Positions 3,670 to 63,577 of a DNA stretch of 64,000 nucleotides are shown in pieces (within the stretch, counting starts at the first letter, position 1; every line of letters starts with the position of its first letter). The position numbers and the translations under genes are program-made. This DNA is from a virus. The DNA is taken from positions 1 through 64,000 of the IMG/VR virus record IMGVR_UViG_3300016471_001035; one strand, given 5' to 3'. The notes under the pieces were generated by a model. The model was not told the DNA's origin and did not search any database. It was given only the letters and a program-made list of their open reading frames with translations.

Positions 3670-4011
3670 ATGAAAACAAGTTGTAAAGTGTGTAATAATA
3701 AAGTGGTAGGGGCTAAAATTAGAGAGCTCTTTAAAGAGGGTTGTATAAAGAATGGTGCTACAGTTGAAGATGCCTATTATGCTAATATGCATAATTGTAG
3801 CAGATATAATAATAAGCTAGTAGATGGTTATAAGATTGTCTATAAAAGTTTAAATTATGGAGCATTCAAAATGTTTAAAAATGATCGCATTAATGTGCAA
3901 AAGGTATGGAAGTATGTATTAGAGCATATTAATAAGATTGATAGTGGGTGGGTGTATAGGGAGTATAGTGGAGAGCATTATGGGATTAGTAAGGAGTTTA
4001 GGGTTGACTAA
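3670..4011 (+). CDS. hypothetical early protein (N-terminal CxxC)
   Basis: ORF with its own promoter. Confidence 0.65.
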   Translation: MKTSCKVCNNKVVGAKIRELFKEGCIKNGATVEDAYYANMHNCSRYNNKLVDGYKIVYKSLNYGAFKMFKNDRINVQKVWKYVLEHINKIDSGWVYREYSGEHYGISKEFRVD

Positions 4012-4031
4012 ATCCAAACTTCCAATATAAT
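4004..4031 (+). promoter_or_regulatory. sigma70-type early promoter
   Basis: TTGACT-N16-TATAAT-N6-ATG(4038). Confidence 0.8.
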
Positions 4032-4037
4032 AGGAGT

Positions 4038-4328
4038 ATGATGAAAAGCAAAATTGAAAAAGTAGTTAGGGAGTTGAAAGCTGATTGTGAAACTGAATTT
4101 GAGGATAGTAATTATGAGGATGTAGTAACAGACTTATACCCCTATTTGAAGAGGATTAATGAGATTAGTGGGTTAAATGATAATAAGAAGCAAGATAAGA
4201 TTTATGAGGAGTTGAAGGATTTTTGTGGTGAAGCCTATTTCCATGTTGCTGAATGTATGTGGGCAGATTTTAATGATAGTTATATTGAAAAGACTGTTAA
4301 TAAGATTGAAGAGATTTTGGTTGACTAA
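4038..4328 (+). CDS. acidic hypothetical early protein
   Basis: D/E-rich ORF with its own promoter. Confidence 0.65.
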   Translation: MMKSKIEKVVRELKADCETEFEDSNYEDVVTDLYPYLKRINEISGLNDNKKQDKIYEELKDFCGEAYFHVAECMWADFNDSYIEKTVNKIEEILVD

Positions 4329-4348
4329 ATCTAAAATTCAGCCATAAT
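4321..4348 (+). promoter_or_regulatory. sigma70-type early promoter
   Basis: TTGACT-N16-CATAAT-N7-ATG(4356). Confidence 0.8.
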
Positions 4349-4355
4349 AGGAGGT

Positions 4356-4565
4356 ATGATGAAACTAGAAAGAAAGAAACAAATTAGTGAGCTTATTGAA
4401 GAGACATTCAATAATGTCACCAAACTAAATGACCTACTCAAGAAATCAGATTATGTGTGGGCCAGAAAGAATAGTGAATCTGAAAATGATGATGATTATG
4501 AATTGGCTGAATCCATTCTTGGGGTGGGAGAGAATCTTAAAGATTGGGGGAAGATGTTTGAATGA
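4356..4565 (+). CDS. acidic hypothetical early protein
   Basis: ORF with its own promoter. Confidence 0.6.
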   Translation: MMKLERKKQISELIEETFNNVTKLNDLLKKSDYVWARKNSESENDDDYELAESILGVGENLKDWGKMFE

Positions 4566-4765
4566 AAACAAAAAATAAGAAAAAGACATTTGAAGTTGAT
4601 ATTGCAGTCACTCTCTTTATCACAAAAGAAGTAGAAGCAGAAGATGAAGATGAAGCTCAATCTATTGCAGAGCATTCCATCAAGACAGGAACTGTTATGG
4701 ATGCTTGGCAGAGTGGAGATTGTGAGATTGAAAGTCAAGGATGTACTGAAGTGGAGGTAGAGTGA
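4562..4765 (+). CDS. acidic hypothetical protein (VEAEDEDEA motif)
   Basis: ATGA overlap with upstream gene; motif common in small phage proteins. Confidence 0.6.
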   Translation: MKTKNKKKTFEVDIAVTLFITKEVEAEDEDEAQSIAEHSIKTGTVMDAWQSGDCEIESQGCTEVEVE

Positions 4766-4980
4766 ATACATTCAAACCATACAATCAAACTAATGTGGTA
4801 GACTTCTATAAGGAGTTGGTGAAGAGGTGGGCAGATGATCAGTTAGATCAACTTCATGAATACCCCATCACTAATAGGAAAGAGGCATTAGAAAGGCTTC
4901 TAGATAGTTCTCTTGATGTGTTTAGGGATGATATTACTGAAGAGATCAGAAAAAGAAATTTATCTTTTTTGGTTGACTAA
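4762..4980 (+). CDS. hypothetical early protein
   Basis: GTGA overlap; ends ..LVD* over the next -35 box. Confidence 0.6.
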   Translation: MNTFKPYNQTNVVDFYKELVKRWADDQLDQLHEYPITNRKEALERLLDSSLDVFRDDITEEIRKRNLSFLVD

Positions 4981-5000
4981 AATCCCAATTCAGATATAAT
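4973..5000 (+). promoter_or_regulatory. sigma70-type early promoter
   Basis: TTGACT-N16-TATAAT-N6-ATG(5007). Confidence 0.8.
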
Positions 5001-5006
5001 AGGTGT

Positions 5007-5312
5007 ATGATGAAAAACAAACAACAGTATCTATCAATTGACTTGTATAATGGCAAAAGCAAGTGGATCTCTCAAAAAGACTTCCTTGCATTTACTATTG
5101 GAGATGAATATGATGGTAAAGATAGTAAAGGGTACTATTATGAGTATAAGACTGATGTGGGGAAAACTGAAAAAGAGTACTATAATTGGAGGGACAATTT
5201 TGAAGACATTCAAAAGACTCCTACCCATACCATCTATAAAACTGAAGAGTGTATGTTAATTGACTTCACCAATCATGACTTTAAGGGTAGTTGGTTAAAG
5301 GAGAACAAATGA
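5007..5312 (+). CDS. hypothetical early protein
   Basis: ORF with its own promoter. Confidence 0.65.
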   Translation: MMKNKQQYLSIDLYNGKSKWISQKDFLAFTIGDEYDGKDSKGYYYEYKTDVGKTEKEYYNWRDNFEDIQKTPTHTIYKTEECMLIDFTNHDFKGSWLKENK

Positions 5313-5470
5313 AAATCAATAAAGAACAAAAAGAGAAAGTACTAGAAGTACTAGAACAATTAGCTGAAGATGCAGGTTATGAGAGTTATGAGAGTGGTGG
5401 TATGGAGAATATTGATAATGTAAATCCATACTACAAGAAGATTTGTAGGGTTCTTAAACTCAACTCCTAA
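5309..5470 (+). CDS. small acidic protein (53 aa, not in ORF track)
   Basis: ATGA overlap; MKINKEQKEKVLEVLEQLAEDAGYESYESGG... Confidence 0.55.
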   Translation: MKINKEQKEKVLEVLEQLAEDAGYESYESGGMENIDNVNPYYKKICRVLKLNS

Positions 5471-5483
5471 CCCATCATAATGG

Positions 5484-5521
5484 AAAAGGCTTATTGTAAA
5501 AGATAAGTCTTTTCTGTTTTT
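5484..5521 (+). terminator. putative intrinsic terminator
   Basis: AAAAGGCTTAT-loop-ATAAGTCTTTT followed by CTGTTTTT. Confidence 0.5.
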
Positions 5522-5533
5522 ATATAGAAAAAT

Positions 5534-5670
5534 GTTCAGTCCAGTCCTCCCCCCTCCTGCCGTAACTTAAGGTGGTAGGTATATTGTATAGGGATTTAGG
5601 TTTTGGTCAATAACAAAATAGTATTTGACTTAAACCAAAATTCTACTATAATAGTTGTATGTTAAATAAA
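5534..5670. repeat. Divergent-promoter element, copy 2
   Basis: See copy 1; minus-strand TTGACC-N16-TACAAT (5610-5583) and plus-strand TTGACT-N16-TATAAT (5625-5652). Confidence 0.85.
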
Positions 5671-5847
5671 AACGAATTTGATAGTTTTGAGGAAATTGAA
5701 AAGTTTATTTATGAAATTGGGGATAGAGATTTAGAGATATATTTTGATAATTTGAAGGAAAGTTATGGGGTTAGTGAATGGGGGGAGGAAAGGATTATAG
5801 AGGAGTTTAGTAAGTATGTGGTTAAAAGTGGGATTTATTTTGTTTGA
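5659..5847 (+). CDS. acidic hypothetical early protein
   Basis: Leaderless; starts MLNK like 3413. Confidence 0.6.
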   Translation: MLNKNEFDSFEEIEKFIYEIGDRDLEIYFDNLKESYGVSEWGEERIIEEFSKYVVKSGIYFV

Positions 5848-5877
5848 ATAAAAAGTAATTTCCAATATAATATAAAA

Positions 5878-6129
5878 ATGATGAATAAAGAAGTTAAAAA
5901 TATATATGGTGGTGAATTGGTAAGTGAAAAGGATGTAATTTGGGATGATGATAAGGAGGTGTTTATTTGTAAGAAAGAATTGGAGGAGGGTAAGTATTAT
6001 GGTTATTATTGTGATGTAAGTAATGAGGGGTTTGTATTTTGGAAGAAAGATGGGAAGGTAGATTATGATGTAGGAGATGTGGATGAATATGGTGATTGGA
6101 TTTTAGTAGAGAAAGGAATTGTTAAATGA
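5878..6129 (+). CDS. acidic hypothetical early protein
   Basis: TTGAAT-N16-TATAAT (5844-5871) upstream. Confidence 0.6.
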   Translation: MMNKEVKNIYGGELVSEKDVIWDDDKEVFICKKELEEGKYYGYYCDVSNEGFVFWKKDGKVDYDVGDVDEYGDWILVEKGIVK

Positions 6130-6398
6130 ATAAAGGATTGAAAGTTAATAGAGGAGAGGATATGGATAGTTTGTATGAAAGTATGGAATATGATTTTGAG
6201 AATGGAGCGGGTATTATTGATAGTTTGAAGCGTATTAATAAAGTTCCGAAAAAGGATTGGGTAAAAGTATTAGAAGGGTTTAAGGAGTGGGAGTTAAGGG
6301 AGTTGGGAGAGAATAGTGAATGGGATAAAGATGAAATGGATAAAGAGAGTGTTGAGTTTATAGAGAAGAATAAGATTAAATGGAATTGGATGTATTGA
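6126..6398 (+). CDS. acidic hypothetical early protein
   Basis: ORF track; E/D/K/W-rich. Confidence 0.55.
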   Translation: MNKGLKVNRGEDMDSLYESMEYDFENGAGIIDSLKRINKVPKKDWVKVLEGFKEWELRELGENSEWDKDEMDKESVEFIEKNKIKWNWMY

Positions 6399-6440
6399 TT
6401 TTGGAGTTGACAAAAAAGTAAATTCCCGTATAATAGGAGT

Positions 6441-6656
6441 ATGATGAAGAAAATATATTTGAATATTGATTGGATGAGTAGGAGTGTTAGTGTTAGTGAT
6501 AAAGAGGGATTTGAGGATTGGAAAAAGTATTTGGTGGAAGAGAATAAATGTGGGGAGAATAAGGATGGGAATAGTTTGGAGATTTATAATGAGGATGATG
6601 AAGATGAGGGTGATAGTATGGTAGAGTTAGAGATTGAAGAGAAAGATTTGTATTGA
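6441..6656 (+). CDS. highly acidic early protein
   Basis: TTGACA-N16-TATAAT (6407-6434) upstream; EDDEDEGD tract. Confidence 0.65.
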   Translation: MMKKIYLNIDWMSRSVSVSDKEGFEDWKKYLVEENKCGENKDGNSLEIYNEDDEDEGDSMVELEIEEKDLY

Positions 6657-6686
6657 CCCAAATCTAAATTCCCCTATAATATGTGT

Positions 6687-6881
6687 ATGATAAATGATAC
6701 AGAGAAGAGTGAGAGGGAGTTGTTTATAGCTTATACAATTGAGAACATTATAAATGGGCTCAAATATATTGGCAATGAAGTGGATCCAGAGAATACCCCA
6801 GCCTGGAATAGTATTAGAAAGCAGTTAGAAACTATTGATAATCAGGTTGATAGGCTGGTAAACAGGACTAAATGGAAATGA
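6687..6881 (+). CDS. hypothetical early protein (start probably 6687)
   Basis: TTGACC-N16-TATAAT (6653-6680), then 6 nt to ATG 6687. Confidence 0.6.
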   Translation: MINDTEKSERELFIAYTIENIINGLKYIGNEVDPENTPAWNSIRKQLETIDNQVDRLVNRTKWK

Positions 6882-7105
6882 AGTTCTCTTATAAGAAGCT
6901 GATTGATGAGCATACAAAAGCTCTCAAGTTAAGATGGGGGGATGATTGCCTCTCTAAAGGAAGTAAGACTGCTATCAATTATGGATGGGGGCAGACAGAT
7001 AACTCTATCTGCTCTAAAATTTATTTGGAGAGTGGGCATCAAGTTTTAGATACTTGGTTTGATGAAGAGGATATGATTTACAGGTCAGCACAATCAGATT
7101 ATTGA
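6872..7105 (+). CDS. hypothetical early protein
   Basis: ORF track; overlaps the upstream stop. Confidence 0.55.
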   Translation: MEMKFSYKKLIDEHTKALKLRWGDDCLSKGSKTAINYGWGQTDNSICSKIYLESGHQVLDTWFDEEDMIYRSAQSDY

Positions 7106-7140
7106 GTTGACTAAACTTAAAGTTCTTTCATAATAATAGC

Positions 7141-7278
7141 AGTTCCTTCCGCAGTACGGGTTTGACTAGCCCAATTGATGTACTGAAGCCCCAACGCCCA
7201 GAGTCTGAGGCGGGTAAAGGTGGGTATATTGTCCTAACTACTGTCGACGTTACTAGAGTAGGGGAGTCGGAAGGAGCT
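7141..7278 (+). ncRNA. putative structured non-coding RNA (~138 nt), family not recognised
   Basis: Promoter TTGACT-N16-CATAAT (7107-7134) with no ATG at +1; 5' AGTTCCTTCCG pairs with 3' CGGAAGGAGCT; internal stems; U-tract follows. Confidence 0.7.
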
Positions 7279-7322
7279 ACTTTTTTAGTTGACGCAAACA
7301 GAAGTTCAGCCATAATAGTAGT

Positions 7323-7493
7323 ATGATGAAATTCGAAACACAAAGACAGATTGAATATTGGTTGGAAGAAATGAATAACGGACATTTCGATAATATGTAT
7401 GAGAATTGTTGTGATATGTATGATAGTGAGGTGTTGATTGTTGATGAGTTTAATAATCAAATCAATTTCTTCTTGAGTGAGGCTTGTCCATAA
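7323..7493 (+). CDS. small acidic early protein (56 aa, not in ORF track)
   Basis: TTGACG-N16-CATAAT-N6-ATG; MMKFETQRQIEYWLEEM... Confidence 0.6.
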   Translation: MMKFETQRQIEYWLEEMNNGHFDNMYENCCDMYDSEVLIVDEFNNQINFFLSEACP

Positions 7494-7533
7494 TTTGGCT
7501 TGACCCAAACCTACATTCAGCCATAATAGTAGT

Positions 7534-7701
7534 ATGATGACAATGACGATCAGAGAAGCGGTGAAGAAGTATAAGAAGAAGGATACGTGCAGGTACTTCT
7601 TGAAATGTACCAATAAAGCCACCACCACCATCCCCAGTCCTATTCTGGGTGAGGTGCCTGCTTGTAAGAGCTGTTCAGACTTCTATAAGAGACAATCATG
7701 A
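7534..7701 (+). CDS. small Cys-rich early protein (55 aa, not in ORF track)
   Basis: TTGACC-N16-CATAAT-N6-ATG; C-x5-C...CxxC, possible Zn finger. Confidence 0.6.
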   Translation: MMTMTIREAVKKYKKKDTCRYFLKCTNKATTTIPSPILGEVPACKSCSDFYKRQS

Positions 7702-7925
7702 CATACAGAGTTACTTGGTATTCAATGTGGGCCAGACCTCAGATATATGATGGGCTCACCAAGCAAGAAGCAGATACTTTAGTCTGGCAGGGTAGGGAGA
7801 GTCAGTATAAAGTAAAGGTAGAAGAGTTTGAGATAGATGGTGATAATCGAACTACACTCGAATAACGCCCCCCGAGCTTAAACTTTATAGTTGACCAACC
7901 CCCAAGAAGCACCTACAATAGTAGT

Positions 7926-8246
7926 ATGATGAATAAAGAAGTTACTTACGAGATCTACGATACAATGATTGGTGATTGGCGCAAAGTCTCCGAGCCTGCT
8001 ATCGGAGGTATTAAGTGGGAGAAGCGTGAGCAGATCGGGGATGAGGTCCAATCTGCCTATTACGATAACTCCTTCTACAAGGTACCCTTCTATGGCCCTT
8101 ACGATCAGGGTCGTATCCATCGTGCTCTCAACAATTTATATCCCGCACGATTCAATAAGTTCGGTGGTTATACTACCGTTTCAAGCGTAGAGCAGCTTGA
8201 TGATCAACACATTAAGGTAGAGCTCTGCTACCATATCGGAGACTAA
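7926..8246 (+). CDS. hypothetical early protein
   Basis: TTGACC-N17-TACAAT-N6-ATG. Confidence 0.65.
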   Translation: MMNKEVTYEIYDTMIGDWRKVSEPAIGGIKWEKREQIGDEVQSAYYDNSFYKVPFYGPYDQGRIHRALNNLYPARFNKFGGYTTVSSVEQLDDQHIKVELCYHIGD

Positions 8247-17843: not shown

Positions 17844-20645
17844 TTAATACTTATATATTCTCAAACTATTAAATCTCATATTTTGCAAGTCACCTCCAGA
17901 GGACCCCACGTTCTCAGTATATATTCTAAATTCTTTTAATACTCCTGACTTATTAACTGTGCTTGTTTCAGCACCTCGGGTAACTGTAATCTCTACATTA
18001 TTGGATGAAGTTTGCTTTGCAACTATATCAAACACACTAGTCTGACTGTATCCCCACCCTAGAAGTGATCCATTAAAGTAATAATCATTACTGGTTACAG
18101 AGAAATTAACTAAAAAGTTTCCATTACTATCAAATAAGTTAACACCTTTACCACCATCTCTATATGCTAAGGCTACTTTAATAGATGCAGCATATCCAAC
18201 AGCAAGATTACTACTAAATGGTCTATTAAAGTAACCAGTCCCCGGGTTACTAGACCATATACCGAACGCCTCACCATTGGTGTTAATATCACCAAACCCT
18301 TGTGTAGTAGAACTACCTATATAGCTACCTGCATTTGATGTTGTCACACTCCATGAGTTAAATCCTGTTCCTCCATTATCACCACCACTTATAGCATCGT
18401 CATCATAAGGGGAATTTGAAGCCACGTCCTCACCACCCGGAGACGTTGTTGGTGTGGGTGAGGGTGTCGCTGTTATTGTTACACTAGGGGTAACTGTTGT
18501 AGTTATCGTGGGTGTTTGGGTTACTGTAGGTGTAGGCGTTTCTGAGGCTGTATTTGAAGGTGTAGGTGTATTTGTTGGCGTATTAGTCGGTGTTAAAGAT
18601 TGAGTAGGTGTTTGTGAAGGTACAAATGGTTCATTGGACGGTGTTTGTGTAATCGTGGGTGTTACTGTTGGTGTTATTGTAGGTGTTGGCGTTTCTGAGG
18701 ATGTATTAGATGGTGTTAACGTTGGTGTAGGTGTCTCTGTTTCTGTAGGTGTAACTGTGGGTGTGGGTGTCTCTGTTTCTGTGGGTGTGTATGTAGGCGT
18801 TTCCGTTGGAGTAATAGTAGGTGTAGGTGTTGGTGTTTCTGTCTCAGATGATGTAATAGTAGGCGTAGGTGTTGGTGTATTTGTCGAAGTTACGGTTATT
18901 GAAGGTGTTGGTGTAGGGGTAGGTTGTATAAAAGGATATACCTTAAAGCTATTAAAGTATAAGTTATTCCTATCATCCCCTGCATTGGTATCAGATACAT
19001 AAAGCTTGTGACCGCGAAGAACATTACTAATCGTTGTTATATTATAATCACCATTAGGCCTGCTCACTGTTATTTGCAGTGTATTTGAACCGGTTTGTGC
19101 TACTACTATTTCAAATACAGACGTTTGACTATAAGTCCACCCTTGGTCAACACCGTTAACCTGATATTGATTACTACCTACATTAAAGTTCCAAACTTCA
19201 TTACTATACCCGGTATCACTAAACAGCGAAATACCCTTATTACCATTTCTAAATGCAATTGCAAGGATAGCTGAAAAAGCATAGCCAACAGTTAAATTAG
19301 AGGAGAGATTTCTCCTTAAGTCAATAAAGTTACTACCAGCTGGATTTGCATATGCGCCGAATGCTTTACTATTAGTTGTTATATCTCCAAAGCCTTGTGT
19401 AACGCTATCTGAGCCTATAAATGCACCGGCAGTACCGTTTAAAGCAAAACTCCAATCATCAAATCCCGGCCCTGCGTCAATACCGTTATTAAATCCAGAA
19501 TTATAAACAGAGTTATTTGCATTATCTTCAAATATGGTTTGTGTGGAAGAAGGTGTAACTGTCGGTGTAGGTGTACCGGTTGGGGTTTCCGTAGGTGTAG
19601 GCGATTCAGTAGGTGTAAATGTAGGTGTTTCTGTAGGTGTAGGTGTTACCGTTGGAGTAGAAGTCTCTGTTTCTGTGGGTGTGTATGTAGGTGTTTCCGT
19701 TGGAGTAATAGTAGGCGTAGGTGTTGGTGTTTCTGTCTCAGATGATGTAATAGTAGGCGTAGGTGTTGGTGTTTCTGTCTCAGATGATGTAATAGTTGGT
19801 GTCACTGAAGACGTATTTGTTGGAGTAATAGAAGGTGTATTAGATGGCGTTACTGTTGATGTATTTGTTACAGTCGGCGATGGTGTAGATGTTTGTGTTG
19901 TAGTAGAAGTAGGCGTTGCAGTAGGTGAGCTTGTAGGTGTATTGGATATAGTTGGCGTTGTTGTGGGGGTTTTAGTCACCGTTGGCGTACTCGTTCTGGT
20001 TACTGTAGGTGTAATAGTTTGTGAAGGCGTTATTGACGGGGTAGGTGATGTTGTTGGTGTTACTGAAGGTGTAACTGCAGGCGCTTCTGTTTTTGTTAAA
20101 GTAAATATTGCTGACCCCGTGCTAGAATAAAACCAAGTATAATAAACATTTTGTGATGTTATTAAAGTAGTAGATTCTGAAATAAAGATTTTATCATCAT
20201 TAGTAATTACATTTACTAAATTATATGCAGAAAGATAGCAGCTATTAAAATCATTTATATCAAAATTATTTTCTACCTCAAATGAGAACCCATCACCTTG
20301 AATAGTAAAATATGTTGTAGTGTTTGAAACCGTTACGTTTATAATGTTAGCTGTAGGTAGGATGTTTATTGTTTGACCGGTTGTATTGACATCAAAGCTT
20401 TGTACCGCACCAGCTACATCTCCCGCACAATAACTACCTGCAGATTCTTCTTCTAATTTTGTAAGCTCTACGGCTCTTTGCTCAAACAATATTCTTCTTT
20501 CGAGTTCAGTTTCTGCCATCGAATCAAACAACATTTTCTTTTGAATATTGTTTGGAACCGGTTTATCCCAAGTTGGTTTATCTGGAGGGAAGGTATAGCT
20601 TCTTCCATCCGATAAAGCATCTAAATATTCATCAAACCAGTCCAT
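17844..20645 (-). CDS. large virion-surface protein with two mucin-like Thr/Pro tracts and two related beta-rich domains
   Basis: (TPT/ETPTP)n tracts; duplicated domain D.A.NS.Y...G...G.GF..WS....AG..IG....QGFGDI.TN..AFG...GW.YSQTSVF. Confidence 0.75.
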
Positions 20646-22185: not shown

Positions 22186-22641
22186 ATGAGGCGTGTATCG
22201 CTATCGTGGGCGGATATAGAGCAAGACTGTGCATTATTAGCAGATCAAATAAAATTTTGTGATGTAATATTAGCTCTTGGCCGCGGTGGGCTTGTGCCAA
22301 GTGTTATGTTGTCTCATTTTTTGGATTGCAAAGTAGTTAATTTTGGCTTGAAGAGCTATTTAAATGAGCAGGCAGGCAATATTGCTGTTACTCAGCCACC
22401 AGGAATACATTTTAACTCAAAATTTAGAGACAAAAAAGTATTAGTTGTAGATGATTTATCAGATAAAGGAACTACTCTTGCCTATGTAAGAGAATATTTA
22501 GTTACCCATGAATTTGATTTTTATAGATTTGCAACACTTTACATTAAATCATCTACAAAATTTACTCCTACGTATTATGTTAAAGAATTTGATGACAATA
22601 TTTGGCTTGACTTTCCTTGGGAAATATCTAAAATAGAATAA
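22186..22641 (+). CDS. gpt: purine (xanthine/guanine-type) phosphoribosyltransferase
   Basis: LSW...ALGRGGLVP; PRPP loop VLVVDDLSDKGTTL; C-terminal WLDFPWE. Confidence 0.8.
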   Translation: MRRVSLSWADIEQDCALLADQIKFCDVILALGRGGLVPSVMLSHFLDCKVVNFGLKSYLNEQAGNIAVTQPPGIHFNSKFRDKKVLVVDDLSDKGTTLAYVREYLVTHEFDFYRFATLYIKSSTKFTPTYYVKEFDDNIWLDFPWEISKIE

Positions 22642-33936: not shown

Positions 33937-33972
33937 GTTGATCTTATTATTATTTACATTTATAATAGTATT

Positions 33973-34803
33973 ATGCTAATGAAAGTATCCCATGAATCTC
34001 CTGTGTCTATTCTAGAATATTCAAAGGAATATAATGATTTTGACTACTGCTTAGTACATCTATTACATCAAAACGCAGGTTCTCCGCAACAATTAGCATA
34101 TAATAATTATTATTCCCATGCCAGATCACTCTATAATAGAGAGGTATTATTAGATAACTCTATTTTCGAGCTCGGAAAAGCTTTCGATCCAGAACAATTT
34201 TATAAATCTGCAATGCTCATCAAACCGAATATGTTTATTGTTCCCGATGTTTTAGAGGATGCAGACGGTACTGTTGAGAGTTGGAACAATTTTGAAGCTA
34301 AGACCGATGATTTAAAGAAAAGTTTTTATACAAAATCGATAGGAGCTGTGCAAGGTAAAACATGGAAAGACTTAGTAGATTGTTATAAGTTTATGTCAGA
34401 TAACGCTGATATGATTGCTATTAGCTTTGATTTTAGTTATTATCAAGCTATAGGGTATGGTAAAACGGAGCTTGAAAGATTCTGCTCAGGTCGTCAGCGC
34501 TTTATTGCGGATTTAATAAATAGTAATGTATGGGATTGGAATAAGCCTCATCATCTTTTAGGATGTTCCCTAGCTAAAGAATTTAGATATTATGTCGATA
34601 GAAACGTTTACAATATTGTCTCTTGTGATACTAGTAATCCTATTGTATGTGCAATATTCGGATTAAAGTATGATGCAGATTACGGTTTAAGTAATAAACC
34701 GAAAGTTAAGTTAGCTGATCTTATTTCTCACGAATTTACTGATGAGCAACTTGATTTAGTAAAATACAATACATCGATGTTTAAAAAAATTATTAGAAGA
34801 TGA
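33973..34803 (+). CDS. dpdA: DpdA/TGT-like TIM-barrel deazaguanine transglycosylase (start probably 33973)
   Basis: LLDNSIFE, VPDVL, GAVQG, HHLLG and SCDTS mirror the TGT-fold motifs; same operon as queF; promoter TTGATC-N17-TATAAT-N6-ATG. Confidence 0.7.
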   Translation: MLMKVSHESPVSILEYSKEYNDFDYCLVHLLHQNAGSPQQLAYNNYYSHARSLYNREVLLDNSIFELGKAFDPEQFYKSAMLIKPNMFIVPDVLEDADGTVESWNNFEAKTDDLKKSFYTKSIGAVQGKTWKDLVDCYKFMSDNADMIAISFDFSYYQAIGYGKTELERFCSGRQRFIADLINSNVWDWNKPHHLLGCSLAKEFRYYVDRNVYNIVSCDTSNPIVCAIFGLKYDADYGLSNKPKVKLADLISHEFTDEQLDLVKYNTSMFKKIIRR

Positions 34804-35369
34804 GACCCTGGGTAACATTTTTTTCGCAAACTGGTACAGAGATTAATAATTTATGTAATGCTTTAGGTATATATCCGGACGCAATTATTACAAACAAACA
34901 GACTACTGATGATATTAATAAGGATTTTTTAACCATTACAACCTTTAGAACACAAAAGCTTAATAGAACAATTTTGTTCACTCTCCCTCACAAACCTAGC
35001 TTAGAGAATTATTTTGAGGTTTTAAGTAAATTTAATAACCCAGTTATAACGTTACATGGCTATTTGAGAATAATACCTAAAGAGATTTGTGAGAAGTATG
35101 AAATCTATAACCTACATCCCGGTTTAATTGACAAATACCCGTCTTTAAAAGGATTTAATCCTCAAGAGAGAGCTTTTATTGGTGGCTATAAGCATGCAGG
35201 ATGTGTTATTCACAAAGTAGTACCTGAAGTTGATGCGGGTGAAATTCTCTTAAGCCAGGGAACAAGTATAGAGGGGTTGACACTTCCACAAGTATACAGC
35301 AAATTACATAATGTTGCATTTGACTTGTGGAAAAGCTTATTTCAAGGGTATAAAATTTTAGGAAAATAA
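34800..35369 (+). CDS. PurN-like formyltransferase, probable preQ1 formyltransferase (DpdN-like)
   Basis: LHGYLRII; YNLHPGL..KYP.LKG; GCVIHKV..EVDAGEIL; between dpdA and queF. Confidence 0.75.
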   Translation: MRPWVTFFSQTGTEINNLCNALGIYPDAIITNKQTTDDINKDFLTITTFRTQKLNRTILFTLPHKPSLENYFEVLSKFNNPVITLHGYLRIIPKEICEKYEIYNLHPGLIDKYPSLKGFNPQERAFIGGYKHAGCVIHKVVPEVDAGEILLSQGTSIEGLTLPQVYSKLHNVAFDLWKSLFQGYKILGK

Positions 35370-36340
35370 TGGATATATCTTTACATTACGAAAACGTTTT
35401 TTTAAAACCTAATTTTAATAATGTTAAAACTAGGGCAGAGATAAACACTGAAGTAAATTTTTTAGGTAAAGTTTTTCGCTTGCCTGTAATTCCTGCAAAT
35501 ATGAAATGCTGTGTTGATTTTGATATTTGTAACATTTTAGACTCTAGAAATTATTTTTACGTGATGCATCGGTTTGATCATGATATCTTTGGTTTTGTAA
35601 AAGATGCTAATGAAGTGTCATTTAACAATGTTTCAATAAGTGTAGGAATACAAAATAAAGATAAAGCATTAATAACTAATTTAGCTAATAGTAAGTTTAG
35701 AGTAGATTTTATTACTATTGATGTTGCGCACGGTCATCATTCAAAAGTTGCTGATCAAGTAAAATTTATTAAAGATACTCTTCCTAAGACAAGAGTTATT
35801 GCAGGTAATGTTGCTACGCGAAATGGTGTTGAATATTTAGCTGTTGCAGGAGCTGATGCTGTTAAGGTGGGTATTGGTGGGGGGTATGCCTGCACTACAA
35901 AGGATAAAACAGGATTTACCTATCCCATGTTTAGTTGTGTTATGGAATGCGCTAGCACTGAGGCGTCAAATTTTGACATACCTGTTATAGCAGATGGCGG
36001 TGTAAGATGTAACGGAGATATAGCTAAAGCTTTAGTAGCCGGTGCTAAGATGGTTATGTGTGGCTCTATATTTGCAGCCTGCTCTGATAGCCCTGCACCG
36101 GTTGTTAAGGATGTTTCTGGAAGGCGCTTTAAGCAGTACTATGGTTCTGCTAGCGTACATAATAAGATGGATAAAAAGAATATAGAAGGTACAATGAAGC
36201 TTATGGAAACAGATTCATTTACTTATGAAGAAAAAATATTAGAAATAACTCAAGACCTGCAAAGCGCTATAAGTTACGCCGGAGGTTGCAATCTTAATGT
36301 TCTTAATTTAAGTAAAGTTGGTTACGGGGTAAGATTATGA
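35369..36340 (+). CDS. guaC: GMP reductase
   Basis: PVIPANM; YVMHRF; ITIDVAHGH; IAGNVAT; [18 protein letters not shown]; IADGGVR..GDIAKAL; [11 protein letters not shown]. Confidence 0.92.
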
Positions 36341-36684
36341 ATCCAGACGATGTAGTTAAAGCAGTTGAATCAGCTTACCCTGAGACTTGCGAAGAGTTTA
36401 AAAAGATTCAACAAGAGCAATATGAAGTATTTTGTAAAAAACAATTTGACTACGGTCCTCATAATATTAGCTTGGGGTCAGATTTACATAAAAAAGAGGA
36501 CATTAATGCCTCTATTTCAGCAATAGTCGTACGTCTTAATGATAAGATACAGAGATTGATTAACTTAGTTTTGCGCAAAAAAACTTTTGAATCTGCAAAT
36601 GAACCGATTTTTGACGCTTTTGGTGACACATCAGTTTATTGTATTATAGCAGAAATTGTTAAGAGAAAGAAATGGTGTAAGTAA
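36337..36684 (+). CDS. DUF1599 / nucleotide-modification-associated domain 1 (Nmad1)
   Basis: F.KKQ.DYG..NI...VRLNDKI.RL.NL...E...D...D...Y.II. Confidence 0.75.
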   Translation: MNPDDVVKAVESAYPETCEEFKKIQQEQYEVFCKKQFDYGPHNISLGSDLHKKEDINASISAIVVRLNDKIQRLINLVLRKKTFESANEPIFDAFGDTSVYCIIAEIVKRKKWCK

Positions 36685-36830
36685 TGTCGTTATTAGATAT
36701 TTTTAGAAATAAAGTAGATAAAATACGTGAGTTAGAAGAAGAAAATGAAATATTGAGACATGAAGTTTATGTCTTGAAAAACTTACTTTTTAATATAGAA
36801 TTAGATGAGCTAGTTAAGAAGAAAAAATGA
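36684..36830 (+). CDS. small coiled-coil protein (48 aa, not in ORF track)
   Basis: Fills the operon gap, with overlapping start/stop codons. Confidence 0.5.
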   Translation: MSLLDIFRNKVDKIRELEEENEILRHEVYVLKNLLFNIELDELVKKKK

Positions 36831-37411
36831 ATATAACATTTACTGGGCCGCAATGTTCAGGCAAGACTACTTTACTTAAATTAATGAGAAGTAGTGGAGG
36901 TATATTTGATAAGTTTTTTTATATTGACGAAGTTACTAGAAAGATAAGAGATGAATGTAATATACCTATTAATGAAGAGGGTGCAAACGATGTAACCCAA
37001 TTACTAATTATAAACGAGGAACTAAAGAATTTGTTTAATAATAGTAGTATGGATAGTTGGTGTAAAGGTACAGTGCATGATAGGTGTCTGCTAGACGGTT
37101 TAGTTTATACAGAATACTTTTATAGCAAGAAGCTAGTCAGTTATCAGGTTTGGACACAAGCGCACTGGTATTGGCAGAGATTTTTTAGTAAGTATGATAT
37201 AATTTTCTATCCATGTCCTCATGATGTTCAACTAATAGATGATGGTGAAAGAAGTGTTGATACAGAATTTAGAAATTCAATAATTAAACTATATGAGGAT
37301 CACTGGTTAAAACAATTTGAGTGGAAAGATAGGATAACTATTTTAAAGGGAACAGTTGAAGAACGCTTAGAACAGATTAAAATTAAACTACATGAACAAG
37401 GTATTAGATAA
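36827..37411 (+). CDS. P-loop nucleotide kinase-like protein (AAA_28)
   Basis: ITFTGPQCSGKTTL; HDRCLLDGLVY; DDGERS...FR. Confidence 0.8.
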   Translation: MNITFTGPQCSGKTTLLKLMRSSGGIFDKFFYIDEVTRKIRDECNIPINEEGANDVTQLLIINEELKNLFNNSSMDSWCKGTVHDRCLLDGLVYTEYFYSKKLVSYQVWTQAHWYWQRFFSKYDIIFYPCPHDVQLIDDGERSVDTEFRNSIIKLYEDHWLKQFEWKDRITILKGTVEERLEQIKIKLHEQGIR

Positions 37412-38306
37412 CAGTAATATTTCGAAACACTTAGGTAAAGTAACCGGTTATAAGTCAACTTACGACCCTTCTCTTTTAGTCAGAGAACCGAGAATTAATA
37501 ATCGTAAGCATTTAGGTATTACTGATGAAGATGCACCTTTTGGTGGTTATGATATTTGGAACGCATATGAGGTGTCTTGTTTAACAGCTGAAGGTATGCC
37601 TATTGCTGCTATTGCTAAGATTGTATATCCATGCAAAAACCATTATATTGTTGAGTCAAAATCAATTAAACTGTATATGAATTCTTTTAATATGCAAATA
37701 TTTAAAGGTAATATGATTCAAGTATTAAACGAATTACAAAATACTATTGCAAATGACTTATCTAATTTACTTGAAGCTACTGTTAAGGTATATGTAAGGT
37801 CAGCTGCAGCGGTATCAGATGACATATATTATCCTCCAGTCTTTAATAATAAAGACTACCCTACCCTTGAAAATAATATTGATGTTACGATGATACAATC
37901 AAAATCTTACGTAGAGGATCCATCTATTTTATCCGCAATAGAGATCCCTGAAGCTAGGATACAAAGATTTCATTCTGCTTTACTAAAAAGCAATTGTAGA
38001 GTTACATCGCAACCAGATTGGGGCGACGTTTATATACATTATAAAGGTAAGTACGAAATCAATCAAACATCGCTACTACAATATATCGTTTCCTTCAGAG
38101 ACGAATGCCATTTTCATGAAGAGATATGTGAGACCATTTATATGCGCTTATTTAGATTATTTAAGCCTGAAGAGCTTGTTGTAAGTTGTTTATATGTAAG
38201 GCGTGGTGGTATTGATATTAATCCTACTAGAGCTAGTAATTATAGCTTATTAGACAAAGCTCTAATAGATGAGTTTAAATATTTTACTAAGACGGTAAGG
38301 CAGTAA
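37392..38306 (+). CDS. queF: NADPH-dependent preQ0 reductase QueF (two-domain type)
   Basis: YDPSLL..PR..NR; D.WNAYEVS; ESKSIKLYMNSFN; LLKSNCRVTSQPDWG; FHEEICE; Y.RRGGIDINP.R. Confidence 0.95.
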   Translation: MNKVLDNSNISKHLGKVTGYKSTYDPSLLVREPRINNRKHLGITDEDAPFGGYDIWNAYEVSCLTAEGMPIAAIAKIVYPCKNHYIVESKSIKLYMNSFNMQIFKGNMIQVLNELQNTIANDLSNLLEATVKVYVRSAAAVSDDIYYPPVFNNKDYPTLENNIDVTMIQSKSYVEDPSILSAIEIPEARIQRFHSALLKSNCRVTSQPDWGDVYIHYKGKYEINQTSLLQYIVSFRDECHFHEEICETIYMRLFRLFKPEELVVSCLYVRRGGIDINPTRASNYSLLDKALIDEFKYFTKTVRQ

Positions 38307-55039: not shown

Positions 55040-55777
55040 TTATTTGCCTGTAATGATTTTTTTACGTATACGATCCTCCTGTTTTTCTTCAAACAATGCA
55101 CTTTTCTGTGCTTTTAAAAGTCTTTCCATATCATCTAGATTTTCTTGATCTAAAACACTAGTCTCATCTTCGATTAATTCACCTTTATCATTTAAGTAAA
55201 ATTTTATCATTTCAATTCTTTGCTCGGGATTACCAAAAATTTCTATAATAGGAGGTCTATCATCTTTAGCTAGAAAAGGGCATATACCATTTCTCATAAG
55301 ATTTTTTTCTATTACTTTAAAAATGTTATCTATTTCTTGAATAAACAATATGTCTATTTCACGGCTTTTCTTTTCTTCTATTTTAACAGGTGCAACTTTT
55401 GTAATAGGTAAGAAAAAAACAATATCAATCGATTTCATACTTTCCTGAACTAAAGGAATGCATTTTTCTATAAATTTTTTATCAATATCTGAAGAACCTT
55501 TTTCTTCAGCCCAAAGAGAATATACCAGGTTATCTAGGGGACATCTATCAAAAATAATTTTATCTCCTTTTTGTGTGCTTTGAATATCATCAATAAGGCA
55601 GTTTAAAATCTTCCATTGACTTTCTTGATCAACCTCCTTATTAATTTTTATATTTTCTTCTTTAATAAGCTTTCTATATGATTCATTTGATCTGCTATAT
55701 GTAGGCCAGTATTTTAAAAAATCTTTTACTAGAGTGGTTTTACCTTGACAAGCACTACCAGAAATAGCTATTCTCAT
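55040..55777 (-). CDS. P-loop nucleotide kinase-like protein (AAA_28); start probably 55777
   Basis: MRIAISGSACQGKTTL; FDRCPLDNLVY; directly downstream of queE. Confidence 0.8.
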   Translation of the reverse strand: MRIAISGSACQGKTTLVKDFLKYWPTYSRSNESYRKLIKEENIKINKEVDQESQWKILNCLIDDIQSTQKGDKIIFDRCPLDNLVYSLWAEEKGSSDIDKKFIEKCIPLVQESMKSIDIVFFLPITKVAPVKIEEKKSREIDILFIQEIDNIFKVIEKNLMRNGICPFLAKDDRPPIIEIFGNPEQRIEMIKFYLNDKGELIEDETSVLDQENLDDMERLLKAQKSALFEEKQEDRIRKKIITGK

Positions 55778-55778
55778 A

Positions 55779-56522
55779 TTATACTTTAAGCGCTTTATCC
55801 CAAATAACAAGCTGTAACCTAGGGCTAAACTTTAAACAATGTTTTTTAGCTAACTCTGCTACAAACGATGCTTTTTCAACATGCTCGGCTCTACTACCAC
55901 AGCATGGCATAAGCCATACTCTTTCACGAGGTACTTGTATATCTTTATTATTAATATACTTTGTAAAAACTTCTTCTAAGTCACGCTCTTCATTTATGAC
56001 AAATTTAAATCCAGAATTGTTTTTAACATGCCATTTTAAAACTTCTGGCTTATATCTTTTTTCTTCCGGGTCACCATTATTAGAAAGTTTAGGTGACGTT
56101 GTAAAAGTTGCTTTCCAGTCTAACCACTGAAAATCAGGAATAATAGTAGCGTTGGTTTCGAAGTCTATCCTCGGAACAAAGCCAAATCTAAAAATAAATT
56201 GATCAACAAGCTCGAGTAGCGCTTTTTGCTGTATTAGCGGTTCACCGCCTGTAATTTTCCATATTGCTCCGTCCTTTAGATTACAGTTAAAACTATTTTG
56301 CGCCATATATTCAAAAATCTGTTCATATGTCATTCTATTTTTAACCGACCAGCTGATAAAGCTATCACAACCATGAGGTGAATCTGATGAAGCAAAACCT
56401 TTACATGTTAAATTACACATAGAAAGACGCATAAAAACAGAGGGGCAGCCAACGTATTCCCCTTCGCCTTCGATTGTATAAAAAATCTTATCATCACTAA
56501 GAAATATAGTTTTTTCACTCAT
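55779..56522 (-). CDS. queE: 7-carboxy-7-deazaguanine synthase (radical SAM); start probably 56522
   Basis: FYTIEGEG...G.PSVFMRL..CNLTC...CDS; ITGGEP; ETN; SPKL; KFVI; V.LMP; FSPRLQ. Confidence 0.93.
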   Translation of the reverse strand: MSEKTIFLSDDKIFYTIEGEGEYVGCPSVFMRLSMCNLTCKGFASSDSPHGCDSFISWSVKNRMTYEQIFEYMAQNSFNCNLKDGAIWKITGGEPLIQQKALLELVDQFIFRFGFVPRIDFETNATIIPDFQWLDWKATFTTSPKLSNNGDPEEKRYKPEVLKWHVKNNSGFKFVINEERDLEEVFTKYINNKDIQVPRERVWLMPCCGSRAEHVEKASFVAELAKKHCLKFSPRLQLVIWDKALKV

Positions 56523-56575
56523 AAAAGTATTATTATATGACATAATTTAGTATATTCAAGAATAAATATTAATAG

Positions 56576-57436: not shown

Positions 57437-58090
57437 TTATGACCCCCAGCTTGTACCGCCAAACAAATTCGAATAGCCTTCAGACTTCGGGCTCTTTAGG
57501 GGTGCGGGCCTCGCACCAGCTTGTGTATTACTCACTGGTATTTGTTTTAAAACATTTGATATAGGTATACCTGTTTCCTTTTCAATTTCATTTATTGTTT
57601 CTCTTATTGGGTTAACCGGTGGTTGAAAAGAAGGGCCTGGTGTTGAGGATGTCTCTACAGTTACTATGCCAGAATTCTTTTCATGCTCCCATACTTCAAC
57701 TCTTTCTACCCAACATCTCTCATTTGTAAGTTTTCTAATGTAAGAGTCTGCTGCATTAAAACACCACTCTGCAGTTTTCTCAATACCCACACCTTCTGGC
57801 ATTATTCTTAAATCACAACCACCGGCTGTATGTAGCGTTTTAAACCCTTCTAGTAAAGGGTCATCACCTGCAACACATAATGTATGATCAAACTGTTTTT
57901 CTAATATATTCTTTAAATCTTTTAAACCACCGAAATCAACAACCCAATTACGCTCGTCTAATGAATGACATGCAAACCAGAATTTAGCTATTAATCTATA
58001 ACCGTGAATAAATTTGCAATGGCTATCAGCTTTCCATTGTCTAAATGCACAAGAACCTAATTCAATAATTTTAGTACTTTTATACGTCAT
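57437..58090 (-). CDS. queD: 6-carboxy-tetrahydropterin synthase QueD with C-terminal extension
   Basis: AFRQWKA.SHC.FIHGY; WVVDFGGLK; FDHT; E.TAE; VEVWEH..NS. Confidence 0.9.
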   Translation of the reverse strand: MTYKSTKIIELGSCAFRQWKADSHCKFIHGYRLIAKFWFACHSLDERNWVVDFGGLKDLKNILEKQFDHTLCVAGDDPLLEGFKTLHTAGGCDLRIMPEGVGIEKTAEWCFNAADSYIRKLTNERCWVERVEVWEHEKNSGIVTVETSSTPGPSFQPPVNPIRETINEIEKETGIPISNVLKQIPVSNTQAGARPAPLKSPKSEGYSNLFGGTSWGS

Positions 58091-60209: not shown

Positions 60210-60863
60210 ATGTTTAAGAAGAAGTTAGCTTTTGCAAATCATAATCACCCTCATACTCAAGAAGAAAGAGAACAAATAATTGAACGGGCAGCTAAAGCAT
60301 ATGAAGCTTACATGGATGCTTTAGGATATGATTGGAGAAACGATCCTAATAGTGATAATACCCCGCATAGAGTTGCTAAGGCGTTTGTAGAGGATTTTGC
60401 TTGGGGCTGCTATAGTAATCCACCTAAAGTAACAGCTTTTGATAATGTAGATAAGTATGATGGAATTGTAGCGCAGACTAATATTAAAGTTACTTCACTT
60501 TGCTCGCATCACCATGCTCCATTTATGGGGTTTGCTCATGTCGCATATATACCTTCTAAGGATGGAAAGGTCATTGGTCTAAGTAAGCTCAATCGAATTG
60601 TTGATTGGTTTGCTCGCCGTCCGCAGGTTCAAGAAAACCTTACAATGCAGATTCACAAGTATATTGATGAGGTCTGTGAAAAGAATAAGGGTGTTGCCGT
60701 AATGATTGAAGCCGCACATACTTGTTGTTCAAATCGTGGTATTAGACATGATTCAACAATGCGTACCGCTAGAATGTCCGGTGCATTTTTAGATGATAAA
60801 GATAATTCTAGAAACGAGTTTTATAAGTTCATTGAGTTTGCGCAAAATAGAAAACTTATTTAA
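60210..60863 (+). CDS. folE: GTP cyclohydrolase I
   Basis: TPHRVAK; SLCSHHHAPF.G.AHVAYIP; GLSKLNRIV..FARRPQVQE.LT; A.H.C...RG. Confidence 0.97.
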   Translation: MFKKKLAFANHNHPHTQEEREQIIERAAKAYEAYMDALGYDWRNDPNSDNTPHRVAKAFVEDFAWGCYSNPPKVTAFDNVDKYDGIVAQTNIKVTSLCSHHHAPFMGFAHVAYIPSKDGKVIGLSKLNRIVDWFARRPQVQENLTMQIHKYIDEVCEKNKGVAVMIEAAHTCCSNRGIRHDSTMRTARMSGAFLDDKDNSRNEFYKFIEFAQNRKLI

Positions 60864-61649: not shown

Positions 61650-62057
61650 ATGGATAACCTATTTAGAAAGTGTACCGAAATTTCTTATGCTTTACTAAAA
61701 AAGCATGGTAATTATCGTTGTAAGCATTTCTCTTTTATTTTTCATAAAAATCGGCTTATTTCTATAGGTATTAATAATCCGAATAAAACACATCCAAAAA
61801 ATTTAGAAATAGGGTTTTATAATAGGCGCGGTGAAGACATATCTCATACAATAGGTGTTCATTCTGAGCTTTCAGCAATACTAAAACTCGGAGAAGAAGA
61901 TTGTTCTAAATTTACACTAGTCAATACACGTATTAACCGTAATCACCAATTAGATTTATCTAAGCCTTGTGACGGCTGTACTTCGTTGTTAGAACAGCTT
62001 AATTTTAAAAAAGTTTACTATTCAACAATTAAAGGTTACCAGTTCTTACAGCTATAA
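61650..62057 (+). CDS. zinc-dependent cytidine/dCMP deaminase-like protein
   Basis: HSE...PCDGC; KH......K...ISIG.N; KKVYYS. Confidence 0.8.
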   Translation: MDNLFRKCTEISYALLKKHGNYRCKHFSFIFHKNRLISIGINNPNKTHPKNLEIGFYNRRGEDISHTIGVHSELSAILKLGEEDCSKFTLVNTRINRNHQLDLSKPCDGCTSLLEQLNFKKVYYSTIKGYQFLQL

Positions 62058-62354: not shown

Positions 62355-62924
62355 ATGTTCGCTAAGGACTATCATTTACTAAATGAAATTTATTCTCAAA
62401 AAATAAATGAGATGAATATAGGTCCAAAAGGTGATAATGAAGGAGTTACACCTACACCAAATCAAATTACAAGAGTTCAATTACCTCCTAAAAGAAAGTG
62501 CGGTGAACAAGCAGAAGAGCCTTCTGAAGATTGTGAAGGACATAACCCCGAAACTTATGACAGTAACGGTACTATGTCTAGACAGCTACTGTTTAGAATT
62601 TTTAAACTTTCAGCAATGCTACATGATATTTTAAATGGTAAAGACAATGTTGAAGCTTGGGTTTTGAGTAAAATAACCAATGCACATGATCAATTAGAAT
62701 CTGTTTTCGGTTATGAAGATTATGAAGCTGCAAAAAACCCTGCACATGGAGCTTGCGGTGCTAATAACTTCGAAGAAAGCAATGAGGAAGACATTTATTC
62801 AGCTATTGCAAAGGGTGGGGATGATATTTTACATCATATTCAAAAAATATTACGTAGAGAATCAAAAGACACTTTAGAAAAAGTTCTGCTTGAAACTATT
62901 TCTTTATTAGAGAAGAAAAATTAA
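62355..62924 (+). CDS. hypothetical protein, putative head-internal
   Basis: MFAKDYHLLNEIY; M...L......L..IL.....EAWV.SKIT.A.D.L..V motif. Confidence 0.55.
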   Translation: MFAKDYHLLNEIYSQKINEMNIGPKGDNEGVTPTPNQITRVQLPPKRKCGEQAEEPSEDCEGHNPETYDSNGTMSRQLLFRIFKLSAMLHDILNGKDNVEAWVLSKITNAHDQLESVFGYEDYEAAKNPAHGACGANNFEESNEEDIYSAIAKGGDDILHHIQKILRRESKDTLEKVLLETISLLEKKN

Positions 62925-63577
62925 CCTAATTTTTTATTAAACAAATTATAGATACTCTCGTCATATTTACCTAACACCTGTGTAATAATTTGTTTTCTTT
63001 TTTCTGGAGTACTAGTTTTGTACAAATTTCTAAGTTCAGATGCACTAGTAATGTTTTTACCCCCTACACTAAATTTAATAGTACCAGGAGAATAAATGTA
63101 GCCGTGACCTCCTTCTTCTTTGAAAGGCTGCAATTCATTTAAACTCTTAAATGGTTGAAAATATGTTGGTGTACCTTTTTTTGTCATACCAAAAGCAAAT
63201 CTTGGATCATCTTTCATATCTTTTTCACCGACAATATAAATTACCTTTGCAACGTTTTGATCGTAATTTTGTAAAATTTCTACAGGTTTGTACGGCTGCC
63301 TTACCAAAGCAATCTCTTTTTCTGGTATACCCGCAGCTAGCATAATTTGTTTTTTCTCATTATAATTAAAAGGATATCTTTCCGGTTCTTTTAAAGATGC
63401 TTTTTCAGGTATATCGGATGTTGCTATAAAAAAATCTGCACCTGGAAATTTTCTTTTAGCTAAATCGAAAAACTCTTTATGACCTTTATGAAACGGTTGA
63501 AACCGTCCTGGAAAAATAACAATTAAGTTATTTTTTTGCGGCATTAAAATTTCATTTACTAGATCGTCAAATCTCAT
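62921..63577 (-). CDS. cytidylyltransferase-like nucleotidyltransferase (HxGH)
   Basis: FPGRFQPFHKGH; IVGEKD; SASELR. Confidence 0.8.
   Translation of the reverse strand: MRFDDLVNEILMPQKNNLIVIFPGRFQPFHKGHKEFFDLAKRKFPGADFFIATSDIPEKASLKEPERYPFNYNEKKQIMLAAGIPEKEIALVRQPYKPVEILQNYDQNVAKVIYIVGEKDMKDDPRFAFGMTKKGTPTYFQPFKSLNELQPFKEEGGHGYIYSPGTIKFSVGGKNITSASELRNLYKTSTPEKRKQIITQVLGKYDESIYNLFNKKLG

Follow-up and report, generated by a model that had tools for sequence, protein, structure and literature searches.

The virus record IMGVR_UViG_3300016471_001035 (linear, 139.6 kb; the window analysed here, its first 64 kb; GC 33.5%) carries an operon for the guanine transglycosylase DpdA3 and the PurN-like formyltransferase DpdN. 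Judged from its genes, this system very probably replaces most or all of the guanine (G) of the phage genome with formyl-preQ1. We make this prediction because the same gene set is found in Flavobacterium phage immuto_2-6A (immuto), whose DNA carries formyl-preQ1 in place of every G (Cui 2023, 10.1101/2023.04.13.536721). An earlier note on this DNA had also proposed formyl-preQ1 with heavy or complete substitution of G, and the shared gene set supports it. The predicted base is already known, and the phage carries a variant of a DpdA3/DpdN formyl-preQ1 system that has been described before.

Comparing the loci of DpdA3 revealed that a kinase belongs to the core of this system. We lean towards the idea that the modified nucleotide is made before replication, the exchange occurring at the nucleotide or nucleoside level. 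This route is supported by the link between kinase and DpdA3, by the swaps between kinds of kinase, and by recurring MazG-type pyrophosphatases. In a broader form, to which we give about an even chance, DpdA3, with its tRNA-guanine transglycosylase (TGT) fold, would have moved to free deoxyguanosine or dGMP and would form, with a dedicated kinase, a widespread pre-replicative pathway of all-G replacement. In outline the idea has a precedent: for Campylobacter phages, a route through modified dGTP had been suggested (PMC6884629) before Cui 2023 set it aside. The post-replicative claim for DpdA3 rests on TGT homology.

The DpdA3/DpdN operon and its gene set

Seven open reading frames (ORFs) on the + strand fill positions 33973-38306, successively overlapping by 4, 1, 4, 1, 4 and 20 nt. 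They encode, in order, DpdA3, DpdN, GuaC, Nmad1, a 48-residue protein, an AAA_28 kinase (Kin1) and QueF. The ORF overlaps and the profile or homology matches, which for Nmad1 come through its homologs, confirm the seven genes and identities given in the earlier note. Its placement of folE, queD and queE at 55-61 kb, with a second kinase directly behind queE, is borne out by coordinates and profile matches.

DpdA3 (33973-34803, + strand; 276 residues) is identified as a guanine transglycosylase with a bare TGT-type TIM barrel by homology, its model and conserved residues. The protein itself has no match in Pfam or NCBIfam. It shares 41% identity with the DNA guanine transglycosylase of immuto and 42-43% with Firehammervirus proteins (42% with that of CP220), aligns with DpdA3 of Cellulophaga phage phiST at a pairwise E of 2e-6, and is nested inside the DpdA3 tree. 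Clustered at 90%, the homologs of DpdA3 number 3,334. The predicted structure (pLDDT 92.7) matches the folds of arcTGT (Z 18.2, root-mean-square deviation 2.9, 239 aligned residues), bacterial DpdA (7UI4, Z 17.7) and TGT (Z 16.4). Residues D61, D92, R174, H194, G197, D219 and N266 are invariant across 137 diverse members, and the Zn motif CxCxxC appears in 0 of 150 DpdA3 sequences. The acid/base and nucleophile aspartates of DpdA are Asp95 and Asp256 (PMC10164549), to which D61 and D219 of DpdA3 may correspond by motif position, a weak mapping. As far as its sequence and model indicate, DpdA3 is a stripped-down transglycosylase with intact catalytic residues. We also notice fusions of DpdA3 in P0131, P0186, P0271-P0273, P0146, P0135 and P0247, whose partners are DpdN, QueF, a 317-residue N-terminal domain and a C-terminal domain, both of no assigned family, and a possible Nmad1-like tail.

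DpdN (34800-35369, + strand) matches PF00551 with an E of 7e-16 and is 43% identical to DpdN of immuto. Its Asn-His-Asp triad (N104/H106/D145) is invariant, and it is a short PF00551 protein co-encoded with DpdA and QueF. Its SxxG loop, near the N terminus, aligns with SGxGSN in glycinamide ribonucleotide (GAR) transformylase PurN, which we take to be the loop that binds the phosphate of GAR. The DpdN loop would thus fit a monophosphate substrate, and it is compatible with DNA too.

QueF (37392-38306, + strand) is a bimodular preQ0 reductase (PF14819 and PF14489; TIGR03138, 265 bits). The other preQ1 genes lie apart from the operon, so that the pathway is spread over three loci: QueE (55779-56543, − strand; QueE models, below cut-off), QueD (57437-58090, − strand; PF01242, E 1e-15), FolE (60210-60863, + strand; PF01227, E 1e-48) and, outside the window, QueC at contig positions 78765-79535 (TIGR00364, above cut-off). 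FolE, QueD, QueE, QueC, QueF, DpdA3 and DpdN are therefore all encoded in one genome, which makes the fdPreQ1 gene set complete.

Two other DpdA3 clusters show variations at these genes. At L127:6782-7354, a GNAT acetyltransferase (PF00583, barely over cut-off) takes the usual place of DpdN, giving the order DpdA3-GNAT-kinase-QueF; this locus may specify acetyl-preQ1, as a DNA base not yet described. At L116:9378-10085, a Vut_1 (PF02592) transporter directly follows QueC, and the Vut_1 family presumably includes queuosine-precursor transporters.

Kinase genes beside DpdA3

Profile matches identify Kin1 (36827-37411, + strand) as a P-loop nucleoside/nucleotide kinase (AAA_28, phrog_2107). Its paralog Kin2 (55040-55777, − strand) is the gene directly behind queE, and CP220 likewise has two kinase paralogs. 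A search of 50,697 phage records with Kin1 matched only Firehammervirus-type Campylobacter phages and immuto. Among solved structures, the Kin1 profile comes closest to the ribosylnicotinamide kinase NadR, to thymidylate kinase and to deoxynucleoside kinase (E ~1e-5). Kin1 also has a DR motif and, like NadR, an ExxR motif following its P-loop. Either a nucleoside or a monophosphate substrate would be compatible with these neighbours and motifs.

With the same criteria for both classes, we searched for a kinase within 3 kb of DpdA3 and of the DNA-acting DpdA1. A kinase is present in 117 of 129 DpdA3 loci, compared with 1 of 85 DpdA1 loci. Counted by clusters, the link holds in 14/15 vs 1/12 at 60% identity (Fisher p 1e-5) and in 22/27 vs 1/33 at 70%. 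The lone DpdA1 case is a weak match that is gone at E 0.01, and no Kin1-family gene was found in 5 whole DpdA1 genomes. In those 5 genomes the neighbours of DpdA1 are a sliding clamp, ParB or a polymerase. The tie between transglycosylase and nucleotide kinase suspected in the earlier note is thus supported by neighbourhood statistics, and it agrees with an exchange on (d)GMP or on the nucleoside.

Gene content was counted in the 97 DpdA3 loci that have sufficient sequence downstream. The AAA_28 kinase is found in 87 loci, a DUF3310 protein in 3, QueF in 87, DpdN in 51, Nmad1 in 42 and GuaC in 19, and the commonest arrangement is DpdA3-kinase-QueF. Because of these counts and the distribution of GuaC, the kinase is core, whereas GuaC, Nmad1 and the 48-residue ORF are accessory. 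The earlier note had given kinase, GuaC and Nmad1 equal weight, which the counts do not uphold. GuaC as a core G-depleting part was rejected: besides its 19 loci, no GuaC was found in the fully modified phages immuto, CP220 and phiST, and it is present also in phages with no DpdA3 match. Nor does Nmad1 qualify as a core part from its 42 loci.

Four kinds of kinase adjoin DpdA3, namely AAA_28, AAA_18, the phrog_761 thymidylate kinase and DUF3310. AAA_28 accompanies DpdA3 in the window, immuto, CP220 and L051. In phiST, CGPG_00066 (L049:16382-16861), directly upstream of DpdA3, is an AAA_18 P-loop kinase-like protein above cut-off; Cui 2023, where the word "kinase" occurs 0 times, gives it as unassigned and without homologs. 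Bacillus phage BSP7 has a phrog_761 thymidylate kinase beside its DpdA3-like gene. A DUF3310 protein occupies the middle of the DpdN-x-QueF slot in six loci and lies directly upstream of DpdA3 in L252. DUF3310 has been linked to the T7 gp1.7 nucleotide kinase (PMC9339283), the one DUF3310 protein with demonstrated kinase activity. In the tree, L246 (AAA_28) is sister, with 99/100 support, to L117/L126 (DUF3310), the kinase being in the same DpdN-x-QueF slot, which means that the slot has been swapped between unrelated proteins. A pathway that requires phosphorylation would be expected to show such a swap, and base exchange on finished DNA would not. As unrelated kinases replace one another, the link to DpdA3 appears metabolic rather than physical. 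T7 gp1.7 phosphorylates dTMP and dGMP, and the gp1.7-type swap favours dNMP as the kinase substrate. Meanwhile, ADG nucleoside is present in the cytoplasm of CP220-infected cells (Cui 2023), which, with the two kinase paralogs, would allow the nucleoside to be the start of a two-step route.

QueF is not required for the link. The clusters of phiST, BSP7 and L051 contain a kinase without QueF, and CP220 has no QueF near its DpdA3; conversely, phiSM, a DpdA1 phage with QueF (Cui 2023), has no kinase beside DpdA1. For a DpdA3 gene standing alone, a kinase can usually be found at another place on the same contig (5 contigs; also L250). In BSP7 (L048:2207-9644, MH707430), one run contains QueC, QueD, QueE, FolE, the thymidylate-kinase-like gene, the DpdA3-like gene and PolA; its relatives are BSTP5/8/10/12, BSP19 and Weizmannia phage Youna2. 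From these genes, heavy or complete G replacement is predicted for BSP7, which is cultured on B. subtilis.

The site of guanine exchange

In the route that we lean towards, FolE, QueD, QueE and QueC, along with QueF, would make preQ1 from GTP by known chemistry. The substrate of DpdA3's TGT double displacement would be free dGMP or free deoxyguanosine rather than DNA, and the products dPreQ1 or its monophosphate and guanine. DpdN would act on the nucleotide, formylating its aminomethyl group as PurN formylates GAR, and Kin1, with Kin2 and/or the host NDP kinase, would raise the formylated nucleotide to the dNTP, which the phage B-family polymerase (PolB) would incorporate. The exchange itself would drain dGMP, hence dGTP. 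The freed guanine could be salvaged by the phosphoribosyltransferase (PRTase) to GMP and GTP for FolE, or passed on by GuaC to IMP and adenine nucleotides, both being accessory steps. MazG/PRA-PH pyrophosphatase genes stand beside DpdA3 in seven other loci (phiST, immuto, L064, L249, L252, L259 and the P0146 contig), and from dGTP a MazG-type enzyme would produce dGMP, on which DpdA3 is proposed to act.

Several observations weigh against this route. In Cui 2023, all insertion was proposed to be post-replicative. On the present contig (66% complete by CheckV), neither a MazG or HD enzyme nor any other enzyme destroying canonical dGTP was found. No kinase was found near DpdA3 in L071, L072 and L120, which are fragments of 28-42 kb (13-20% complete) with no Que gene near DpdA3 either and are possible exceptions to the kinase rule; nor was a kinase found near DpdA3 in L251, L254 and L255. 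Where DpdA3 has relocated, the kinase remains with DpdN-QueF. One large clade supplies 104 of the 129 DpdA3 loci, and the control class is DpdA1, mostly from small siphoviruses, with no neighbourhood control from DpdA2 (T4-like), whose gene was not located in T4-like nt-1; small phages show the kinase link too (BSP7, 55 kb; phiST, 79 kb). Two arguments about the protein were dropped. Acidity making DpdA3 unable to bind DNA fails because the DNA-acting phage DpdA1 is likewise acidic (median isoelectric point 5.9 vs 5.6), and loss of the Zn site is no marker of DpdA3, as phage DpdA1 is without it too. The TGT fold and the catalytic residues are retained in DpdA3, and the characterised TGT/DpdA relatives known to us all work on nucleic acids or, in the case of Cap10, on protein. 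In addition, Crippen reportedly found in 2019 no dADG phosphates in the nucleotide pools of infected Campylobacter.

The kept fold and residues and the reported lack of dADG phosphates suit a post-replicative exchange, in which DpdA3 puts preQ1 in the place of G once the DNA is replicated, DpdN adds the formyl group on DNA too, and kinase, GuaC and PRTase serve no more than ordinary dNTP supply and guanine recycling. This is the published model of Cui 2023, and DpdA1 and bacterial DpdA do work on DNA (PMC10164549). It leaves unexplained why DpdA3 has a kinase as companion and DpdA1 has none, and why the same slot is refilled by unrelated kinases. It also leaves unexplained 100% replacement without a sequence motif: all three DpdA3 phages tested show complete replacement (immuto by formyl-preQ1, CP220 by ADG, phiST by 7-deazaguanine), and other DpdA types reach at most 30% (Cui 2023). 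We regard this explanation as a serious but rather unlikely one. A hybrid would combine the nucleic-acid-acting fold with the kinase link: DNA or oligonucleotides are the substrate of DpdA3, modified dNMPs are set free by nucleases or proofreading, and the kinase recycles them toward 100%, in pools that might be small enough to escape detection. Such a route is indirect and costly, and the minimal DpdA3-kinase-QueF core holds no nuclease, making it improbable.

A further route would enter through the PRTase, which would join preQ1 with phosphoribosyl pyrophosphate to a ribonucleotide for the kinase and ribonucleotide reductase, leaving DpdA3 to destroy dGMP or to play a side role. The window indeed encodes a xanthine/guanine PRTase-like protein (22186-22641, + strand; PF00156, best model PRK09177), 4.6 kb from the class Ia ribonucleotide reductase. 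PRTases also lie in or near the DpdA3 clusters of immuto, L073, L246, L249 and L259, and the phiST genome has one. As a universal entry the PRTase is weakened, since none was found in the fully modified CP220 or in BSP7; one lies near DpdA3 in 2 of the 97 loci, and DpdA3 is the constant gene with its catalytic residues kept. We consider this entry quite improbable. Least credible is a queuosine-like role of the cluster in modifying host or phage tRNA, which would leave virion DNA unmodified or lightly modified. The TGT fold agrees with it, and Que genes can serve tRNA, but 3/3 tested DpdA3 phages are fully replaced in DNA, and DpdA3 is without the insertions and the Zn site with which TGTs handle tRNA (PMC10164549). 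Our literature search, mostly outside subscription journals, found no paper that settles the site of exchange.

Returning to exchange on free nucleotides or nucleosides, the kinase link names a missing partner and may explain why activity of DpdA3 could not be demonstrated in E. coli (Cui 2023). The cultured phages BSP7, phiST and immuto are suited to the question. If true, the pathway would stand as the Z-genome's counterpart for G, and the view of all 7-deazaguanine DNA modification as post-replicative would fall. It would also add a new one to the activities of TGTs and open a way to make 7-deaza-dGTP analogues, and fully substituted, nuclease-resistant DNA, with enzymes.

Accessory genes, genome setting and known systems

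GuaC (35369-36340, + strand; 323 residues) is a GMP reductase of the Bacillus type. It scores 319 bits with PRK05458 (cut-off 344) vs 164 with IMPDH, has the catalytic Cys loop, and contains no CBS domains. GuaC and the PRTase are best read as handling guanine freed by the exchange, which fits either mechanism.

Nmad1/DUF1599 (36337-36684, + strand) is an all-alpha protein assigned to PF07659 via homologs: 30 of 51 homologs match the family, the atlas value is 0.96 and the BFVD neighbours are Nmad1, while the window protein itself has no Pfam match to PF07659. It is helical, with invariant D69, E89, D93 and D97 plus basic residues. A fold search with the monomer model gave no PDB fold above Z 7.1, the best being unrelated helical bundles; comparison with MazG-like and gp1.7-like profiles gave an hhalign probability <1% (shallow profiles), and a PDB profile search was empty. 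A MazG-like or gp1.7-like identity is thus unsupported by fold and profile searches, and the possible all-alpha pyrophosphatase of the earlier note found no pyrophosphatase link. Nmad1 and MazG co-occur in L064 and the P0146 contig, so Nmad1 is not a simple substitute for MazG. The DpdA3-Nmad1 fusion in P0247 is suggestive (pairwise E 0.04). Downstream, the 48-residue coiled-coil-like ORF (36684-36830, + strand) has homologs of 35-58% identity in 7 relatives, and other ORFs occupy its position elsewhere. ORFs of 330-441 residues, perhaps mobile endonucleases, are inserted between Nmad1 and kinase or between kinase and QueF in L007, L008, L010, L012, L014, L015 and L047.

The operon is flanked by a divergent baseplate-like gene on its 5' side and by a convergent ORF abutting the queF stop on its 3' side. 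For the single promoter claimed earlier, there is one sigma-70-like site (TTGATC-17-TATAAT, 33938-33966, + strand, 10/12 consensus match), and a similar -10 element upstream of DpdA3 is kept in 36 of 42 relatives; such sites are not above chance in the region (21 vs 25.6 in shuffles). From the -10 box to the ATG of DpdA3 there are 6 nt, and no Shine-Dalgarno motif is evident at 33938-33975. The operon mRNA may be leaderless, an arrangement that would be conserved in relatives.

By its genes, the phage, which is uncultured, is T4-like, with a major capsid protein, baseplate genes, the class Ia ribonucleotide reductase and PolB (contig 74669-77257, identified by profile match). Palindrome avoidance was not informative (median 6-mer ratio 1.02). 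Elsewhere in the window, G skew reaches +0.40 across a short-ORF region (4001-8000), and a 933-residue protein (17844-20645, − strand) has long Pro/Thr repeat tracts flanked by two similar globular parts. Near folE lies a deaminase-fold protein (61650-62057, + strand; PF00383, slightly below cut-off). Another protein (62921-63577, − strand) has an HxGH motif, presumably as in cytidylyltransferase-like enzymes.

The DpdA1/DpdA2 systems (9g, CAjan, Rosebush, phiSM, nt-1) share a TGT-fold enzyme and the Que pathway with the present one, but substitute at most 30% at sequence motifs, and DpdA1 has no kinase neighbour. The Z-genome (PurZ/MazZ/DatZ) and dU-DNA resemble the proposed logic of making a modified dNTP and removing the canonical one (PMC12697855). 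Entry here would be through TGT-fold base exchange; the likeness is one of analogy only, with no shared genes. In phiST (complete 7-deazaguanine), DpdA3 and the adjacent P-loop kinase-like gene also lie beside pathway genes, but its kinase is AAA_18, MazG and DpdL are present, and the cluster has no QueC or QueF. In CP220 (complete dADG), DpdA3 is directly followed by an AAA_28 kinase (31% identity), whereas the base differs, no DpdN or QueF is near its DpdA3, and an HD/P-loop gene is upstream. Compared with immuto, which has PolA, the T4-like window phage has PolB, adds GuaC, Nmad1, the 48-residue ORF and a second kinase, spreads the pathway over three loci, and has no PRA-PH/MazG that we could find. 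Both phages encode DpdA3 (41%), DpdN (43%), the AAA_28 kinase (30%) and QueF (46%) in the same order, together with FolE, QueD, QueE, QueC and a PRTase.

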